Assembly: GCF_001677475.2 (NCBI RefSeq)
Contig: NZ_CP015229.1
Direction: 5' to 3' (one strand)
DNA length: 64,000 nt
From: Escherichia coli
GTDB taxonomy: Bacteria > Pseudomonadota > Gammaproteobacteria > Enterobacterales > Enterobacteriaceae
This document shows, in pieces, positions 18,854 to 59,950 of the stretch (within the stretch, counting starts at the first letter, position 1; each line of letters begins with the position of its first letter). The notes beneath the pieces are model-generated. The model was given only the letters and a program-made list of their open reading frames with translations, searched no databases and was not told the DNA's origin. The translations under genes were made by a program, and so were the position numbers.

Positions 18854-19087
18854 AAAACGTAGTTAAACGATTGCGTTCAAATATTTAACCCTTCCAGTTC
18901 TCTTTATCATAATGATAAGGAATCACTGATTTTGAGAAAAGAGAAAAAGTGATAAATGGGTTGCCAATAATAATTTCCAGGAGTGATTTTAATTCTCATT
19001 TGGCACCTGTGAGTTCATTCACAAAAAGCCCCTAAGTTTCGAGCCGCCTCACATTTTTTTATATTTCCCGCCAAACCTGGCAAGAGT

Positions 19088-30235: not shown

Positions 30236-31603
30236 ATGTCTGGAGACATCCTACAAACACCGGACGCACCAAAGCCACAGGGCGCGCTGGATAATTATTT
30301 TAAAATTACCGCTCGTGGCAGTACCGTTCGTCAGGAAGTACTGGCTGGCTTAACGACCTTTCTGGCCATGGTTTATTCCGTTATCGTCGTTCCGGGAATG
30401 CTGGGCAAAGCAGGTTTTCCTCCCGCAGCTGTGTTTGTTGCCACCTGTCTGGTCGCGGGCTTCGGCTCGTTGCTGATGGGATTATGGGCCAATTTGCCAA
30501 TGGCGATTGGTTGCGCGATTTCCTTGACGGCGTTTACCGCATTCAGTCTGGTTCTCGGGCAACAAATTAGCGTTCCTGTCGCACTGGGCGCGGTCTTTCT
30601 GATGGGCGTCATCTTCACCGCCATTTCCGTAACCGGTGTGCGTACCTGGATCTTACGTAATTTACCGATGGGGATAGCTCACGGTACAGGTATCGGTATC
30701 GGCCTGTTTCTGCTGCTGATTGCTGCTAACGGTGTGGGAATGGTTATCAAAAACCCGATTGAAGGCTTGCCAGTGGCGCTCGGTGCGTTTACCTCCTTCC
30801 CAGTGATGATGAGCTTGCTGGGGCTGGCGGTCATCTTCGGTCTGGAAAAGTGCCGCGTACCCGGCGGGATCTTGTTGGTGATTATTGCCATCTCGATCAT
30901 CGGCTTAATCTTTGATCCAGCGGTGAAATACCACGGTCTGGTGGCGATGCCAAGCCTGACTGGCGAAGATGGTAAATCTCTGATTTTCAGCCTCGATATT
31001 ATGGGCGCACTCCAGCCAACTGTACTTCCGAGTGTACTGGCATTGGTGATGACCGCAGTGTTCGACGCCACTGGTACCATCCGTGCCGTCGCCGGTCAGG
31101 CGAATTTGTTGGATAAAGACAACCAGATCATCAACGGCGGCAAAGCCCTGACCAGTGACTCAGTAAGTTCAATATTCTCCGGCCTGGTGGGCGCAGCGCC
31201 CGCAGCGGTTTATATCGAATCAGCGGCAGGAACCGCCGCCGGGGGTAAAACAGGGTTAACCGCAACCGTAGTGGGGGTGTTATTCCTGCTGATTCTGTTC
31301 TTATCACCGCTGTCATTTTTGATCCCTGGTTACGCCACTGCACCCGCTCTGATGTACGTAGGTTTGCTGATGTTAAGTAACGTCTCGAAGCTGGATTTCA
31401 ATGATTTTATTGACGCTATGGCTGGCCTGGTGTGTGCCGTGTTCATCGTTCTGACTTGTAATATCGTTACCGGTATTATGCTGGGCTTTGTGACACTGGT
31501 CGTAGGCCGCGTCTTTGCACGCGAATGGCAAAAGCTGAATATTGGTACGGTGATCATTACTGCCGCACTGGTCGCATTTTACGCGGGTGGTTGGGCAATC
31601 TAA
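30236..31603 (+). CDS. ghxQ: guanine/hypoxanthine permease (NCS2 family)
   Basis: 455 aa multi-pass membrane protein. Confidence 0.88.
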
Positions 31604-31608
31604 TAGAT

Positions 31609-31640
31609 TCTCCGCGCCTTTCAGCGCGGAGATTTCTTTC
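31609..31640. terminator. bidirectional terminator TCTCCGCGC-ctttca-GCGCGGAGA with T-run, between ghxQ and ygfS
   Basis: 9-bp perfect stem read directly. Confidence 0.65.
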
Positions 31641-32130
31641 ACAGAGGATTCTCACCGCTGGCAACAATACGCTGCTGGCGGACTCGCCTGAGTTCTCTTT
31701 CAGTAAGCAACTGCAGCGCCTGTGTTGGGCAAGATTCAACGCAGGCTGGCCCCTCTTCCCGCTGTTCACAGAGATCGCATTTCACGATTTGTTGCCGGGT
31801 ATCCCCCGGCAACGACTGAATGGTGATCATTCCAAACGGGCACGCACTGACGCAACTCTGACAGCCAATACAACGGGCAGAATTGGTCTGCACCACCTGC
31901 TCGCCCATCGTCAGCGCCCCCACGGGGCAAGCGCCAACACAAGGGGCGTTTTCACACTGATGGCACATCACCGGCGCACTGATGCTGTCCAGTCGCTGTA
32001 CCTTCAGCCGGGGTAAAAAGACATCGGCATTCAACTCCTGTTCTGAAGGGTGAGCGACCACACAGGCTACTTCACAAGTACGGCAGCCAATACAGTCAGC
32101 CGGATTAACGATAACTAACGATTTCATCAC
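31639..32130 (-). CDS. ygfS: 4Fe-4S ferredoxin-type protein
   Basis: 163 aa with multiple CxxCxxCxxxCP motifs. Confidence 0.88.
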
Positions 32131-34046
32131 GATGCCTTCGTATCAAACAGAGTTAACATATCGCGCGCCGCCTGCCTTCCTGCGGCCATTGCAGTGACAA
32201 CCAGATCCGCGCCATGAACTGCATCACCACCAGCAAAGACTTTTTTCAGATGCGTCTGGGTAGGTAAATACCCGACGTCACCGGTTTGAATCAGGCCCCA
32301 TTTATCGAGTTTAATTCCGCTGCCCTGCAACCACGGCATGGCATGCGCCTGGAAACCAAAGGCCATAATGAGAACATCGGCGGGCAATTCAAACTCTGAA
32401 CCCGCTACCGGACGAGGACGACGGCGACCATCCGGCCCCGGCTCACCCATGGCGGTACGAATCAGGCCCACCGCAGTTAAACGCCCATCTTCGTCACAAG
32501 CGATATATTGCGGCTGAACATTGAACTGAAACTCGACACCTTCCTCGCGCGCATTGACCACCTCTTTGCGCGAGCCCGGCATACTGACTTCATCACGACG
32601 ATACGCGCAGGTCACGCTGGCGGCATTGAGGCGGATGGAAGTCCGCAAACAATCCATGGTCGTATCGCCACCGCCCAATACCACGACTCGCTTACCTTCC
32701 ACATCCGTCAGCGGATACTCTTCAGACTCCGGCAACCCCATGAGCTGGCGGGTATGGGCAGTCAGGAATGGTAGAGCCTGAATGACACCGGGCGCATCTT
32801 CATGCGGCAGATCTGCTCGCATCATCCCGTAAGTCCCCACGCCGATGAAAACTGCATCATATTCAGAAGTTAAATCGCTAAAGGCAATATCGCGGCCAAT
32901 TTCACAGTTAAGATGAAAGTCGATTCCCATTGCGGTGAATATCTCTCGCCGCTGGCTTAATACCGTTTTATCGAGTTTGAAAGGAGGTATGCCAAAAGTC
33001 AGCATACCGCCAATTTCTGGATGGCGATCAAAGACATCAACCTGAACTCCTGCGCGCGCCAAAATATCAGCACACCCTAACCCTGCAGGCCCTGCGCCAA
33101 TCACCGCCACTTTTTCGATACGGGGAACAACTTTGCTGACATCGGGACGCCAGCCCATCGCCAGCGCGGTATCGGTAATGTAGCGTTCCAGATTCCCGAT
33201 AGAGACTGCGCCAGAGTGATCTTTCAAAGTACATGCGCCTTCACAAAGACGGTCCTGTGGACATACCCTGCCGCAGATTTCTGGCAAGGAACTGGTCTGG
33301 TGGCAAAGTTCTGCCGCTTCAATAATCTTTCCTTCCTGCACCAGACGGATGTAATCCGGAATAGCGTTATGCAGCGGGCAATGCCAGTTGCAGTTAGCTT
33401 TTTCGGCGCAATAAACACAGCGGTCACTCTCATAAGTCGCTTGTTGTGGATCCAGCCCGTAATAGATTTCGCCAAAGTGGGTTTTCCGTTCACTCGCTGA
33501 AATTTTATCTGCGCCTTTACGCGAGTTAACGGGGAGCAACGCTGCACTGCGAGATGGCTGAGCGTCTGATGACGCTTTTCCTGCTGCCGTTTTGCGCTGG
33601 CGGACCACCTTTATCTGTTGCAACCCTTTATCGTCCATCAGCCGTAACGCCTGTGTTGGGCAGACTTCAATACAGGCTTGCGTGCCGGAACTACGCTGGT
33701 TACAAAGGTCGCATTTCTGCGCAATCGTATCGACCATCTCAACGACGCCAAAGGGGCAAGCGATTGCGCATCTTTTACAACCAATACATTTTTGCTCGTC
33801 CAGTTGTACGCTATCGGGCTGGAAAGTCAGAGCATTAACCGGACAAGCCGTAACGCAAGGGGCATTGTTGCAGTGATGGCAGGCCACCGGATTCGCAGCC
33901 TGGCCTTTCCCTACAACGTGGATACGCGGTCGAAAGTCACTGTGACTCAGCGGCCAGTTTTCTTGATTATGTGCCATCGCACAGGCAATTTCACAAGCAT
34001 GACAGCCTATACATTCCGCAGCTTCAGCAGCGATAAACTTATTCAT
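32127..34046 (-). CDS. ygfT: fused 4Fe-4S / FAD-NAD(P) pyridine nucleotide-disulfide oxidoreductase
   Basis: Translation from [23 protein letters not shown]; Rossmann motif [12 protein letters not shown]; supplied ORF extends 5 codons upstream; stop overlaps the ygfS start. Confidence 0.88.
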
Positions 34047-34397
34047 TTGCATCCCTTTCATTTAATGAGTTATGTCTTCTCAAATTTCGCGATGCAATAA
34101 ATGGGCATATATTAGGTAGCATGGCCGATTTAATTATAATTTTGCGACTGAGTTCAAATTATTGCCCCTCAATCTGTGCCGCTTTCATTATTTCAACATT
34201 GCCGACCAAAAGAGAGCTAACCAGATAAAAACGATTAAATACGAGAGTGCGACATGCCAGAATGATTAATGAAATATCAATATGAGAAAATTACAGATAA
34301 TTCCATTGTCAGGTTCTCTTCTCATTTTCGTGGTTTAACCACGATTATGTGATTGCCTCCGCAATTCCTGTCTCTAACTCCCCTTCCTCGCAAAAAC

Positions 34398-34413
34398 TGG
34401 CACTCCACGAGCA
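34398..34413 (+). promoter_or_regulatory. candidate sigma54 promoter upstream of uacT: TGGCACtccacgaGCA
   Basis: TGGCAC at -24 and GC at -12 with canonical spacing, about 69 nt upstream of uacT. Confidence 0.35.
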
Positions 34414-34481
34414 TGTGTTTAGACAGTTTCATTAACGTAAACGGTTGCTTTTTACTCTGGCGAGCGAAAGGAGAAACACTG

Positions 34482-35930
34482 ATGAGCGCCATAGATTCCC
34501 AACTTCCCTCATCTTCAGGGCAAGATCGCCCAACTGATGAGGTTGACCGCATATTATCACCAGGAAAGCTGATCATACTCGGTCTGCAACACGTCCTTGT
34601 CATGTACGCAGGTGCAGTCGCTGTTCCTCTTATGATTGGTGACCGACTGGGCCTCTCAAAAGAAGCTATTGCGATGCTCATTAGCTCGGATCTCTTTTGC
34701 TGCGGGATCGTCACATTATTGCAATGTATCGGTATCGGCCGCTTTATGGGGATCCGCCTGCCGGTGATTATGTCGGTGACCTTCGCCGCTGTAACACCAA
34801 TGATAGCCATTGGGATGAACCCGGATATCGGCCTGCTGGGGATATTCGGTGCCACTATCGCCGCGGGTTTTATCACCACATTATTAGCGCCACTTATCGG
34901 TCGCTTGATGCCTTTATTCCCGCCACTGGTTACCGGTGTGGTTATTACTTCTATCGGACTTAGCATCATTCAGGTGGGTATTGACTGGGCCGCAGGAGGT
35001 AAAGGGAATCCGCAATATGGTAATCCTGTTTATTTAGGTATCTCCTTTGCTGTCTTAATTTTTATCTTGCTCATTACTCGCTATGCGAAAGGATTTATGT
35101 CCAACGTCGCCGTATTACTGGGGATTGTATTTGGCTTTTTACTTTCGTGGATGATGAATGAAGTCAATTTATCCGGGCTACATGATGCTTCATGGTTTGC
35201 GATTGTCACGCCGATGTCATTTGGTATGCCGATTTTCGATCCCGTTTCCATTCTGACCATGACTGCCGTGTTAATCATCGTGTTTATCGAGTCGATGGGG
35301 ATGTTCCTGGCACTGGGTGAAATAGTCGGTCGTAAACTCTCTTCACACGATATTATTCGCGGGTTGCGTGTCGATGGCGTAGGGACAATGATAGGCGGAA
35401 CGTTTAACAGCTTCCCCCACACGTCATTTTCTCAAAACGTTGGCCTGGTTAGCGTGACGCGCGTTCATAGCCGCTGGGTGTGTATTTCTTCGGGAATTAT
35501 ATTAATCCTGTTTGGCATGGTGCCAAAAATGGCGGTGCTGGTCGCCTCCATTCCGCAATTTGTGCTGGGCGGTGCTGGGCTGGTGATGTTCGGCATGGTA
35601 CTGGCGACAGGGATTCGAATTCTGTCGCGCTGTAACTACACCACCAACCGTTACAACCTCTATATTGTGGCGATCAGTCTCGGCGTTGGCATGACTCCGA
35701 CGCTCTCTCACGATTTCTTTTCTAAGTTACCGGCCGTACTGCAACCGTTGCTGCATAGCGGCATTATGCTCGCAACCCTTAGCGCCGTTGTGCTGAACGT
35801 CTTCTTTAATGGCTATCAGCATCATGCTGATCTGGTGAAGGAATCCGTCTCTGATAAAGATTTAAAAGTCAGGACAGTACGTATGTGGCTTCTGATGCGC
35901 AAGCTGAAGAAAAATGAGCATGGAGAATAA
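34482..35930 (+). CDS. uacT: uric acid permease (NCS2/NAT family)
   Basis: Translation from MSAIDSQLPSSSGQDRPTDE; supplied ORF has a 43-codon extension; multi-pass membrane protein. Confidence 0.88.
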   Translation: MSAIDSQLPSSSGQDRPTDEVDRILSPGKLIILGLQHVLVMYAGAVAVPLMIGDRLGLSKEAIAMLISSDLFCCGIVTLLQCIGIGRFMGIRLPVIMSVTFAAVTPMIAIGMNPDIGLLGIFGATIAAGFITTLLAPLIGRLMPLFPPLVTGVVITSIGLSIIQVGIDWAAGGKGNPQYGNPVYLGISFAVLIFILLITRYAKGFMSNVAVLLGIVFGFLLSWMMNEVNLSGLHDASWFAIVTPMSFGMPIFDPVSILTMTAVLIIVFIESMGMFLALGEIVGRKLSSHDIIRGLRVDGVGTMIGGTFNSFPHTSFSQNVGLVSVTRVHSRWVCISSGIILILFGMVPKMAVLVASIPQFVLGGAGLVMFGMVLATGIRILSRCNYTTNRYNLYIVAISLGVGMTPTLSHDFFSKLPAVLQPLLHSGIMLATLSAVVLNVFFNGYQHHADLVKESVSDKDLKVRTVRMWLLMRKLKKNEHGE

Positions 35931-36178
35931 TATGAATCTTTTAATGCGCGCTATATTCAGTCTGTTGTTGCTTTTTACTCTCTCTATTCCTGTCATTTCT
36001 GACTGTGTTGCAATGGCCATTGAAAGTCGCTTCAAATATATGATGCTGCTTTTTTAAATGGTTTTACCTGTCGACATCCGCTCAAAACGGGCGGTTGTCG
36101 ATAAACGCTCACTTGGTTAATCATTTCACTCTTCAATTATCTATAATGATGAGTGATCAGAATTACATGTGAGAAATT

Positions 36179-48917: not shown

Positions 48918-49106
48918 AAAGGCGCCGAAGCGCCTTTCAAATTGATGACAAAGTGCGTTTTTATGCCGGATGCGGCGTGAACGCCTTATCCAGCCTACAA
49001 GATCGTGCAAATTCAATACATTGCAGAGACCATGTAGGCCTGATAAACGAAGTGCATCAGGCAATGTTGAGTTTGTCATCAGCCTCAAAGGCGCCGAAGC
49101 GCCTTT
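48918..49106. repeat. REP/BIME-like cluster: two REP-like palindromic units flanked by two identical 20-bp hairpins AAAGGCGCCGAAGCGCCTTT
   Basis: Identical hairpin copies at 48918-48937 and 49087-49106; REP-like units around 48965-48999 (GCCGGATGCGGCGTGAACGCCTTATCC) and 49034-49062 (GTAGGCCTGATAAACGAAGTGCATCAGGC). Confidence 0.7.
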
Positions 49107-58943: not shown

Positions 58944-59128
58944 ATTTCTCTGAGATGTTCGCAAGCGGGCCAGTCCCCTGAGCCGATATTTCATACCACA
59001 AGAATGTGGCGCTCCGCGGTTGGTGAGCATGCTCGGTCCGTCCGAGAAGCCTTAAAACTGCGACGACACATTCACCTTGAACCAAGGGTTCAAGGGTTAC
59101 AGCCTGCGGCGGCATCTCGGAGATTCCC
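58944..59128 (+). ncRNA. ssrS: 6S RNA (SsrS), RNA polymerase-sigma70 regulatory RNA
   Basis: Sequence ATTTCTCTGAGATGTTCGCAAGCGGGCCAGTCCCCTGAGCCGATATTTCATACCACAAGAATGTGG...GGCATCTCGGAGATTCCC matches the 6S RNA sequence as I remember it; ends are approximate to within a few nt. Confidence 0.9.
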
Positions 59129-59750: not shown

Positions 59751-59810
59751 GGGCGACACACCTGCATCGCCCTGATTGACATCGTTGATTCTTTAACCTA
59801 ATTTAGTGAG

Positions 59811-59950
59811 TAAGGGTAAGGGAGGATTGCTCCTCCCCTGAGACTGACTGTTAATAAGCTGGGAAACTTATGAGTAACAGTACAATCAGTATGATGACAA
59901 GTCGCATCATAACCCTTCTCCTTTAAGCCCTCGCTTCGGTGAGGGCTTTT
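59811..59950 (+). ncRNA. sibC: SibC antisense small RNA (type I antitoxin), cis-encoded opposite ibsC
   Basis: Candidate promoter TTGACA (59776-59781), 17-nt spacer, TAATTT (59799-59804); terminator hairpin AAGCCCTC-gcttcggt-GAGGGCTT plus T-run at 59925-59950; fully overlaps ibsC on the opposite strand; ends approximate. Confidence 0.7.
59851..59910 (-). CDS. ibsC: IbsC small hydrophobic toxic peptide (19 aa), type I toxin
   Basis: Minus strand ATG ATG CGA CTT GTC ATC ATA CTG ATT GTA CTG TTA CTC ATA AGT TTC CCA GCT TAT TAA translates to MMRLVIILIVLLLISFPAY; too short to appear in the supplied ORF list. Confidence 0.8.
   Translation of the reverse strand: MMRLVIILIVLLLISFPAY

Follow-up and report, generated by a model that had tools for sequence, protein, structure and literature searches.

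How do electrons from formate enter the degradation of urate in Escherichia coli? Urate breakdown by gut bacteria influences gout and the urate levels of the host, with E. coli serving as genetic model of the pathway. Its enzymatic steps were assigned in 2025; the published scheme omits YgfT (UacF) and YgfS and therefore leaves the formate dependence of degradation in E. coli unexplained. Here we analyse the ygfT-ygfS locus within a 64,000-nucleotide stretch of an E. coli chromosome (the window) and propose, as on balance the probable reading, that it is an operon of the urate cluster whose products accept electrons from formate dehydrogenase H (FdhF) and reduce NADP+ for the urate pathway.

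Part of the answer was already in print. According to later papers that cite Iwadate and Kato (2019), formate- and FdhF-dependent urate degradation requires aegA/ygfT; aegA, ygfT and ygeV take part in formate-dependent urate consumption, and AegA/YgfT were proposed to hand electrons of formate dehydrogenase on to NADP+ or to urate. By these accounts the genetic need for formate, fdhF and ygfT/aegA is shown. Urate strongly induces ygfT, expression of ygfT drops in a ygeV mutant, and the YgeV iModulon includes ygfT together with xdhD, ygfK and uacT. The initial annotation of this DNA had tied the pair to formate as well as to the purine cluster, and had named urate consumption by mutants and co-expression with xdhD and ygfK as tests. 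The link agrees with the published genetics, the requirement for aegA/ygfT and the iModulon supply the two outcomes, and the idea and its tests have thus mostly been published already, with positive results. The two reductive steps are assigned to XdhD and YgfK, and XdhD-YgfM and YgfK have been reconstituted in vitro with NADH alone, without YgfT/YgfS; therefore the pair is not catalytically essential to the core pathway. In the literature searched we found no biochemical data on YgfT or YgfS, and no recorded ygfS phenotype.

The identity of the two genes is firm. RefSeq annotation of E. coli names both open reading frames ygfS and ygfT (matching locus 99.6% identical), and both genes are found in 5344 of 5426 complete E. 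coli genomes, ygfS being interrupted by an IS element in some strains. The two minus-strand reading frames that had been called were confirmed by the open reading frame call and by RefSeq, as was the 435-bp region between the divergent starts of ygfT (34046) and uacT (34482); the description of ygfS as a poly-ferredoxin and of ygfT as a fusion of FeS and FAD/NAD(P) parts is borne out by RefSeq, Cys motifs and Pfam domains. The finding is correct, yet already known from published work.

Two details of the locus needed revision. A 4-bp overlap of ygfS and ygfT had been described; an overlap exists, but at the junction, which reads GTGATGA, it amounts to 1 bp with the annotated ygfS ATG (32127) and to 4 bp only if translation starts at a GTG (32130). 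The ATG is kept in 13 of 13 related loci, whereas the GTG position is GCA in Citrobacter sp. MGH106. Start and stop overlap in all 13 loci with ygfS, as TGATG (1 bp) in Escherichia and some others and as ATGA (4 bp) elsewhere, a conservation that points to a translationally coupled operon pair. The bidirectional terminator said to be shared with ghxQ also stands in part. A G+C-rich hairpin occupies the 35-bp gap separating the ghxQ and ygfS stop codons and is stable on both strands (−19.4 and −20.7 kcal/mol; z −4.1 and −4.8 vs shuffles), but the T-run is present on the plus (ghxQ) strand only, the minus-strand tail being AAUCUAUUAG, and the terminator scan called the hairpin on the plus strand and not on the minus strand. 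Termination of both ghxQ and ygfS by this hairpin is therefore at best plausible.

Table 1. Genes and sites of the ygfT-ygfS locus (positions are those of the window).
Feature	Position	Strand	Remarks
Hairpin	31609..31632		Between convergent ghxQ and ygfS stops; ghxQ intrinsic terminator, possibly ygfS too
ygfS	31639..32127	minus	162-aa cytoplasmic ferredoxin, four [4Fe-4S] motifs, HycB/HydN-like
ygfT (uacF)	32127..34046	minus	639 aa: ferredoxin domain, ~45-aa linker, GltD-like domain
PurR box GGGCAAGCGATTGCGC	33754..33769	+	Within ygfT coding region
Shine-Dalgarno AAAGGGA	34052..34058	minus	Serves ygfT start 34046; columns invariant in 8 genera
Non-canonical sigma-54 promoter of ygfT, TATGCCCATTTATTGCA	34093..34109	minus	-24 TGC instead of GGC; -12 TTGCA
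CRP-like box TTTGA-N6-TCGCA (ygfT sense)	34143..34158		Between upstream motif pair and promoter
Two 13-bp palindromic motifs, TCTCATATTGATA type	34255..34267 and 34275..34287		20 bp apart; block invariant in 8 genera
uacT sigma-54 promoter candidate, TGGCACTCCACGAGCA	34398..34413	+	GG and GC correctly spaced; 68 bp before uacT ATG

The gap between ygfT and uacT had been singled out for a search for promoter and regulator sites, and candidates lie on both strands (Table 1). The sigma-54 site of ygfT, in which GCC and TATTGCA are invariant across 8 genera, emerged only from comparison across genera and matched a published ChIP-seq site, OS32, which lies 36 bp upstream of ygfT and whose motif score, 4.5, is low (Bonocora, 2015); the OS32 17-mer matches it save for one spacer difference. 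A scan of the window with the canonical sigma-54 motif gave 44 matches vs 45 expected and is therefore uninformative alone, and a sigma-70 consensus scan of 31400-34700 was not above chance (4 vs 3.1 expected) and gave no candidate upstream of ygfT. The uacT candidate is conserved in Escherichia, Citrobacter and Pseudocitrobacter and is absent from the ChIP sites of Bonocora (2015). The 13-bp motif occurs 8 times in the window, vs 1.18 expected, and stands upstream of all four sigma-54 sites of the cluster, with matching copies at 3418, 9236 and 18905; the pair between ygfT and uacT is kept in Klebsiella and Enterobacter and is a candidate upstream activator site for YgeV/UacR, common to both divergent promoters. 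The half-sites of the CRP-like box are invariant and its spacer variable across the 8 genera, and with 8 of 10 matches to TGTGA-N6-TCACA it may be a CRP site. The PurR box is an exact match to the site that a PurR ChIP-chip study assigned to ygfT-ygfS. A perfect palindrome unique in the window, TCGTGGTTTAACCACGA (34328-34344), was rejected as a regulator site, since it lacks conservation even among the other species of Escherichia. In our reading ygfT-ygfS would be transcribed as a two-gene operon from a weak, non-canonical sigma-54 promoter that is YgeV-dependent and urate-induced.

YgfS carries 16 Cys in four [4Fe-4S]-type motifs (12/15/18/22, 55/58/63/67, 86/89/92/96 and 117/120/129/133), has Pfam matches to Fer4_11 and related families and lacks a twin-arginine (Tat) motif at its N-terminus, as would be expected of a four-cluster ferredoxin of the HycB/HydN type. 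Its best NCBIfam matches are the N-termini of AegA and YgfT, and HydN, none passing an equivalog cut-off; at 136 bits it falls short of the HydN equivalog NF007658 (cut-off 260) and is therefore a paralogue rather than HydN itself. YgfS is 45% identical to the N-terminus of YgfT, where four [4Fe-4S] motifs repeat the identical 16-Cys pattern. Its closest solved chains are HycB (7z0s_B) and HycB3/4 of hydrogen-dependent CO2 reductase (HDCR); these nearest solved kin of YgfS and of the YgfT N-terminus partner FdhF-type enzymes. Pinske (2018) grouped YgfS, YgfT and AegA as paralogues together with HydN, YsaA, HycB and HyfA, and described a two-hybrid interaction network of FdhF, HydN, YsaA, HycB and AegA. 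The same study found no strong direct two-hybrid interaction of AegA with FdhF, and dye-linked FDH-H activity was not lowered by deletion of aegA.

YgfT matches the NCBIfam equivalog NF009451 (‘formate-dependent uric acid utilization protein YgfT’) at 1498.1 bits across its full length (residues 1-639 of 639), well above the curated cut-off of 1154 bits. With 953 bits against the AegA model NF009408 it is under the cut-off of 1003 and is therefore a paralogue of AegA and not AegA. The ferredoxin part is followed by Fer4_20 (E 2.4e-37) and Pyr_redox_2 (E 2.6e-20) domains with FAD and NAD(P) Rossmann motifs, and residues 171-635 score 846 bits against TIGR01318 (GltD; cut-off 483). Dickeya GltD, which is a true small subunit of glutamate synthase, shares 60% identity with this domain, and the PDB relatives of the domain are the GltS small chain and NfnB (4ylf_B, 5jca_L). 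Two Cys clusters, an FAD Rossmann motif and an NADPH Rossmann motif with Arg-Arg for the 2'-phosphate mark it as a GltD-like module. Judged by sequence motifs, YgfT is predicted to hold four [4Fe-4S] clusters in its HycB-like part and two more, with FAD and an NADPH site, in its GltD-like part.

Could YgfT itself be the reductase of urate or of a downstream intermediate, with YgfS merely its electron donor? Iwadate and Kato, as cited in later work, allowed for direct transfer to urate, and YgfK, which reduces 2,8-dioxopurine, has Fer4_20 and Pyr_redox_2 as YgfT does. However, the ferredoxin and GltD-like parts fill all 639 residues of YgfT, the FMN and substrate domains of YgfK and dihydropyrimidine dehydrogenase are absent, both reductive steps already have their enzymes, and in Cedecea the pair stands in a context without purine genes, so that we consider this explanation extremely improbable.

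The ygfT-ygfS pair with its start/stop overlap is conserved in 12 enterobacterial genera, in most of them inside or adjoining the xdh/ygfK cluster. The selenoprotein gene fdhF adjoins the locus in 5 of the 12. Klebsiella, Enterobacter, Pluralibacter and Serratia have an fdhF orthologue (Sec140; 85-90% identical to K-12 FdhF) within the divergent uacT unit, and Cedecea has fdhF directly divergent from ygfT-ygfS, neither a purine gene nor a molybdenum hydroxylase lying nearby. In Mixta and Buttiauxella the direct divergent neighbour of the pair is a Mo/FAD xanthine-dehydrogenase-like operon. Citrobacter sp. R56 has an intact ygfT and no ygfS, and an AegA-type gene of Buttiauxella has a ygfS-like gene beside it. 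Ferredoxins of 154-167 aa and 51-59% identity in other genera were first taken for YsaA orthologues; gene context identified them as true ygfS orthologues. Genome-scan matches in Pantoea, Dickeya and Enterovibrio covered only the GltD-like part of YgfT and were set aside; the Dickeya match lies beside a gltB-sized gene and is therefore an ordinary gltD and no relative of ygfT. New here are the conservation across 12 genera, the fdhF adjacency in five, the ygfS-less Citrobacter and the candidate activator motif at four sigma-54 promoters.

These neighbourhoods bear on a second explanation, the electron-input module of the initial annotation, in which YgfS/YgfT, drawing on FdhF or, through the FAD, on NADPH, would hand low-potential electrons directly to the iron-sulfur/FAD chain of XdhD-YgfM or YgfK without a free NAD(P)H intermediate. 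By established redox potentials formate reduces more strongly than NAD(P)H, which would favour urate reduction. The position of the pair within or adjoining the xdh/ygfK cluster in most genera, and divergent from the Mo/FAD operon in Mixta and Buttiauxella, speaks for such a direct connection, as does the literature on the clostridial urate-reducing XdhAC, which does not use NAD(P)H and requires some other, low-potential donor. Nevertheless, E. coli XdhD-YgfM has its own FAD subunit and runs on NADH in vitro, YgfK does likewise, and in Cedecea the fdhF/ygfT-ygfS unit stands alone, with no molybdenum hydroxylase nearby. We regard direct transfer as unlikely, if worth keeping in mind.

We therefore return to electron acceptance from FdhF with reduction of NADP+. 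YgfS/YgfT would be an alternative electron-accepting partner of FdhF, and homology and gene neighbourhood suggest that YgfS, the N-terminal domain of YgfT, or both dock on FdhF in the manner of HycB within formate hydrogenlyase. The fusion of GltD-like domains to formate-dehydrogenase-like chains in 8oh5_C and 9bov_A and the two-hybrid network around FdhF also speak for this mechanism. Electrons from formate would then pass along the cluster chain to FAD and reduce NADP+, and the reducing power would serve the conversion of urate to 2,8-dioxopurine by XdhD-YgfM and then the dearomatisation of 2,8-dioxopurine by YgfK. We infer the docking, the part played by YgfS, the direction in which electrons flow and the choice of NADP+ as acceptor. 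The loss of ygfS in Citrobacter sp. R56, the IS-split ygfS, the two-hybrid and dye-assay results for AegA and the in vitro reconstitution with NADH but without the pair count against this mechanism.

A wider scheme is more tentative, and we hold it with rather less confidence than the mechanism itself. FdhF, YgfS and YgfT might together make up a soluble formate:NADP+ oxidoreductase, or else a wire from formate to the reductase, giving FdhF a second physiological home in addition to formate hydrogenlyase. An fdhF / ygfT-ygfS divergon might be ancestral, kept in Cedecea and joined by an inserted urate permease in Klebsiella, Enterobacter, Serratia and Pluralibacter, and YgfS might be the subunit dedicated to docking on FdhF, with HydN or YsaA able to stand in where it has been lost. 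Knowing how formate electrons enter would complete the pathway and aid the design of urate-lowering probiotic strains; if the scheme is true, a soluble formate:NADP+ system built of FdhF-YgfST would also lend itself to formate-driven regeneration of cofactors.

How does this pair compare with known systems? HycB of formate hydrogenlyase (7z0s_B) is the best solved relative of both YgfS and YgfT residues 1-140 (E 6.5e-32 and 2.4e-30), and the 16-Cys four-cluster pattern is common to them; AegA has the same ferredoxin plus GltD-like architecture as YgfT. GltD (TIGR01318; PDB 6s6s_G, 2vdc_G) shares with YgfT two [4Fe-4S] motifs, GAGPAGL (FAD), GGGDT.MDC (NADPH) and AYRRDE..MPGS. Unlike GltD, YgfT has an extra N-terminal four-cluster ferredoxin domain and no gene for a GltB partner nearby, and its electron partner is therefore not the glutamate synthase large subunit. 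NfnB of the NfnAB transhydrogenase likewise has a GltD-like module with FAD and two clusters, linking NADP(H) to iron-sulfur chains. It could thus be asked whether YgfT bifurcates or confurcates electrons in the manner of Nfn, its GltD-like FAD coupling NADPH with a second partner and splitting or merging electrons between a low-potential ferredoxin branch (YgfS with the N-terminal domain) and an acceptor of higher potential. The module is homologous to NfnB, the holder of the bifurcating FAD (4ylf_B, 5jca_L), and a review has raised the possibility for AegA. We nonetheless judge it very unlikely: unlike NfnAB, the ygfT-ygfS operon has no NfnA-type subunit with [2Fe-2S] and FAD, and GltD, the closest relative, does not bifurcate, while the sequence of YgfT does not tell a bifurcating from a plain mode. 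Lastly, in PDB 8oh5_C and 9bov_A a GltD-like module is fused to a molybdopterin/formate-dehydrogenase-type chain, whereas the enterobacterial formate dehydrogenase is encoded by a separate gene.

Of 5426 complete E. coli genomes, 5344 match the 4-kb stretch around ygfS-ygfT at 95-99.6% identity, and the gene names used here (ghxQ, ygfS, ygfT and uacT) are those of the best-matching E. coli record. The initial annotation likened the pair to a module that could feed electrons, for example from formate or NAD(P)H, into the neighbouring hydroxylases; what it observed is essentially correct and needs only minor changes on two points, the overlap and the terminator. Since the formate/purine interpretation agrees with published work, the finding is already known. 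The adjacency of fdhF and a shared upstream motif are nonetheless useful leads, which refine the established picture without overturning it.

The 435-bp region between the divergent ygfT and uacT was borne out, uacT starting at 34482. A 4-bp overlap of ygfT with ygfS, also claimed, holds only if ygfS starts at the upstream GTG of the junction GTGATGA; with the annotated ATG the overlap is 1 bp. Because the ATG is kept in 13 of 13 related loci examined, and GCA replaces the GTG in Citrobacter sp. MGH106, we take the ATG to be the true start. Several other genera have ATGA, a genuine 4-bp overlap, and judged from these junctions the conserved feature is start/stop coupling. The terminator said to serve both ghxQ and ygfS is a hairpin whose stability on either strand far exceeds that of shuffled sequence (z -4.1 and -4.8), but its T-run and the terminator scan call are confined to the plus strand; for ghxQ it is a sound terminator, for ygfS a weak one at best. 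In some E. coli, IS3 or IS1 has inserted within the stretch (NZ_CP063153.1, NZ_CP169035.1), and in NZ_CP063153.1 the ferredoxin gene is annotated twice, suggesting that ygfS is split. Elsewhere in the window, three small RNAs and one tRNA match Rfam models at gathering level.

Positions of features in the window and, where a handle is given, in related loci of other genera (L004, L016, L017, L021, L022 and L023)
Feature	Position	Strand	Remarks
ygfS	31639-32127	-	ORF and annotation of best-matching record
ygfT	32127-34046	-	ORF and annotation of best-matching record
Hairpin	31609-31632		Single hairpin filling the 35-bp gap from ghxQ stop to ygfS stop
Block 1	34093-34109		GCC-N4-TATTGCA; conserved in eight genera
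Block 2	34143-34158		TTTGA-N6-TCGCA; half-sites conserved, spacer variable (eight genera)
Block 3	34255-34267 and 34275-34287		Pair of 13-bp palindromic motifs, spaced 20 bp; conserved in eight genera
Sigma-54-like motif TGGCACTCCACGAGCA, facing uacT	34398-34413	+	68 bp before uacT start
TCTCATATTGATA-type copies	3418-3430, 9236-9248, 18905-18917, 34275-34287		Second copy at 34255-34267
CRP-type site TGTGATCAACCCCACA	9390-9405		Between upstream motif and ygeW sigma-54 promoter
PurR box	33754-33769		About 290 bp inside ygfT
Palindrome TCGTGGTTTAACCACGA	34328-34344		Perfect, 17 bp; ygfT-uacT intergenic
yqfG	35932-36057		41-aa ORF directly after uacT
yqfG homologues	L016 3931-4059; L017 4046-4162		Klebsiella; Enterobacter
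fdhF beside ygfT-ygfS orthologues	L016 1772-3919, L017 1865-4018, L021 2997-5144, L022 4356-6503, L023 784-2931		Klebsiella, Enterobacter, Serratia, Cedecea, Pluralibacter
ygfT of Citrobacter sp. R56	L004 10001-11975		Intact, 81% identity
6S RNA	58944-59127
Sib antitoxin RNA	59776-59926
ES036/CssrF sRNA	48999-49041
tRNA	2283-2353	-

A search for promoter and regulator sites in 34047-34481 had been suggested, and an alignment of the ygfT-uacT intergenic region across eight genera revealed three conserved blocks amid otherwise diverged sequence. Block 1 has sigma-54 promoter spacing, but its -24 element is TGC instead of GGC; it coincides with the sigma-54 ChIP-seq site OS32, 36 bp upstream of ygfT, whose motif score was low (Bonocora 2015). 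Block 2 may be a CRP-like box. The motif pair of block 3 is retained in Klebsiella and Enterobacter and belongs to a 13-bp palindromic type, TCTCATATTGATA, present in eight copies in the window against 1.18 expected, a count reached by no shuffle. Four of these are found at distances of 110-215 bp upstream of the cluster's four published sigma-54 sites (xdhA, ygeW, ygfK and ygfT), making the motif a good candidate for the upstream binding site of the activator YgeV/UacR; no earlier report of it was found in the literature searched. The CRP-type site at ygeW mirrors in its placement the CRP-like box upstream of ygfT, and the ygeV-ygeW region has a native Crp site according to a 2025 paper on the pathway. 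The sigma-54-like motif facing uacT, which Escherichia, Citrobacter and Pseudocitrobacter have in common, is absent from the published sigma-54 ChIP table; Klebsiella and Enterobacter instead have TGGCACAGCTTACGCA, 117-142 bp upstream. The box that a PurR ChIP-chip study assigned to ygfT-ygfS falls within the ygfT coding region, not in its promoter. The palindrome TCGTGGTTTAACCACGA is unique within the window and not conserved in other Escherichia species.

In published expression data, ygfT is strongly induced by urate, the ygfT-ygfS operon is likewise described as urate-induced, a ygeV mutant has lower ygfT expression, and the YgeV iModulon as tabulated joins ygfT to xdhABC, ygeWXY, hyuA, ygfK, ssnA, ygfM, xdhD and uacT. 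[quoted passage not shown]

The ygfT-ygfS pair was found in 12 genera. Escherichia, Citrobacter, Pseudocitrobacter and Yokenella share the E. coli arrangement; in Kluyvera, Klebsiella, Enterobacter and Pluralibacter the pair converges with ssnA-ygfK and not with ghxQ; in Mixta and Buttiauxella it diverges from a xanthine-dehydrogenase-like operon. The divergent neighbour is almost always a uacT-like permease. Near the Serratia pair we saw only fdhF, a permease and a xanthine-dehydrogenase-like operon, with no ssnA-ygfK at the locus. A gene table entry lacking a Pfam match proved to be the selenoprotein gene fdhF; it has an in-frame TGA at codon 140 with a conserved downstream element, and the encoded proteins are 85-90% identical to K-12 FdhF. 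In Klebsiella, Enterobacter, Pluralibacter and Serratia fdhF follows the permease gene closely, in the unit divergent from ygfT-ygfS, and the upstream sequence read in Klebsiella and Enterobacter contains no separate promoter region for fdhF. In Cedecea, where the pair has no purine-gene association and purine genes are absent nearby, fdhF is directly divergent from it. Independently of E. coli genetics, this neighbourhood points to FdhF as the pair's primary partner. The small yqfG has homologues of 38-42 aa at the equivalent position, between permease gene and fdhF in Klebsiella and Enterobacter; all share an SRF motif and a hydrophobic N-terminus.

YgfT scores 1498 bits on the NCBI equivalog 'formate-dependent uric acid utilization protein YgfT' (cut-off 1154) and slightly below the cut-off on the model of its paralogue AegA. 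Four ferredoxin-type cysteine motifs in residues 1-140 are followed, beyond a linker some 45 residues long, by a GltD-like module (Fer4_20 and Pyr_redox_2; residues 171-635), 60% identical to a genuine Dickeya glutamate synthase small subunit, whose gene adjoins a gltB-sized gene; the module conserves both cluster motifs as well as those for FAD and for NADPH, the latter including Arg-Arg. YgfS, with 16 cysteines forming four motifs of this type, shares 45% identity with the N-terminus of YgfT. It passed no equivalog cut-off, and HydN was ruled out (136 bits against 260).

The best reading is that formate is oxidised by FdhF, whose electrons would enter YgfS and/or the YgfT ferredoxin domain and pass via the GltD-like clusters and FAD to NADP+, the reducing power then driving XdhD-YgfM and YgfK. 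Iwadate and Kato (2019) proposed that AegA/YgfT pass formate dehydrogenase electrons to NADP+ or urate. The main rival is a direct wire from the pair into XdhD or YgfK. Bifurcation is less likely. A catalytic role of YgfT itself is also less likely: two 2025 studies assign reduction of urate to 2,8-dioxopurine to XdhD-YgfM, and its dearomatisation and opening to YgfK with SsnA, the E. coli enzymes using NADH in vitro, the reconstitution paper naming YgfT (as UacF) only as an earlier-proposed, uncharacterised oxidoreductase and the other not mentioning it.

For the FdhF-to-NADP+ route, the entry point may be a small ferredoxin. Pinske (2018) grouped YgfS, YgfT and AegA with HydN, YsaA, HycB and HyfA, and in two-hybrid assays AegA joined a network with HydN, YsaA and HycB while strong direct AegA-FdhF contact was absent, a pattern suggesting that a small ferredoxin could mediate FdhF contact. 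The obvious candidate for this is YgfS, with its translational coupling to YgfT, and HydN or YsaA are possible substitutes. Citrobacter sp. R56 has ygfT with the ghxQ end about 60 bp beyond it and ygfS cleanly absent, so at least one lineage can do without YgfS. Formate hydrogenlyase HycB and the HycB3/HycB4 of hydrogen-dependent CO2 reductase are the closest solved structures for both YgfS and the YgfT ferredoxin part; they are iron-sulfur partners of FdhF-type formate dehydrogenases, and in the solved structures 8oh5_C and 9bov_A a GltD-like domain is fused to a formate-dehydrogenase-like chain.
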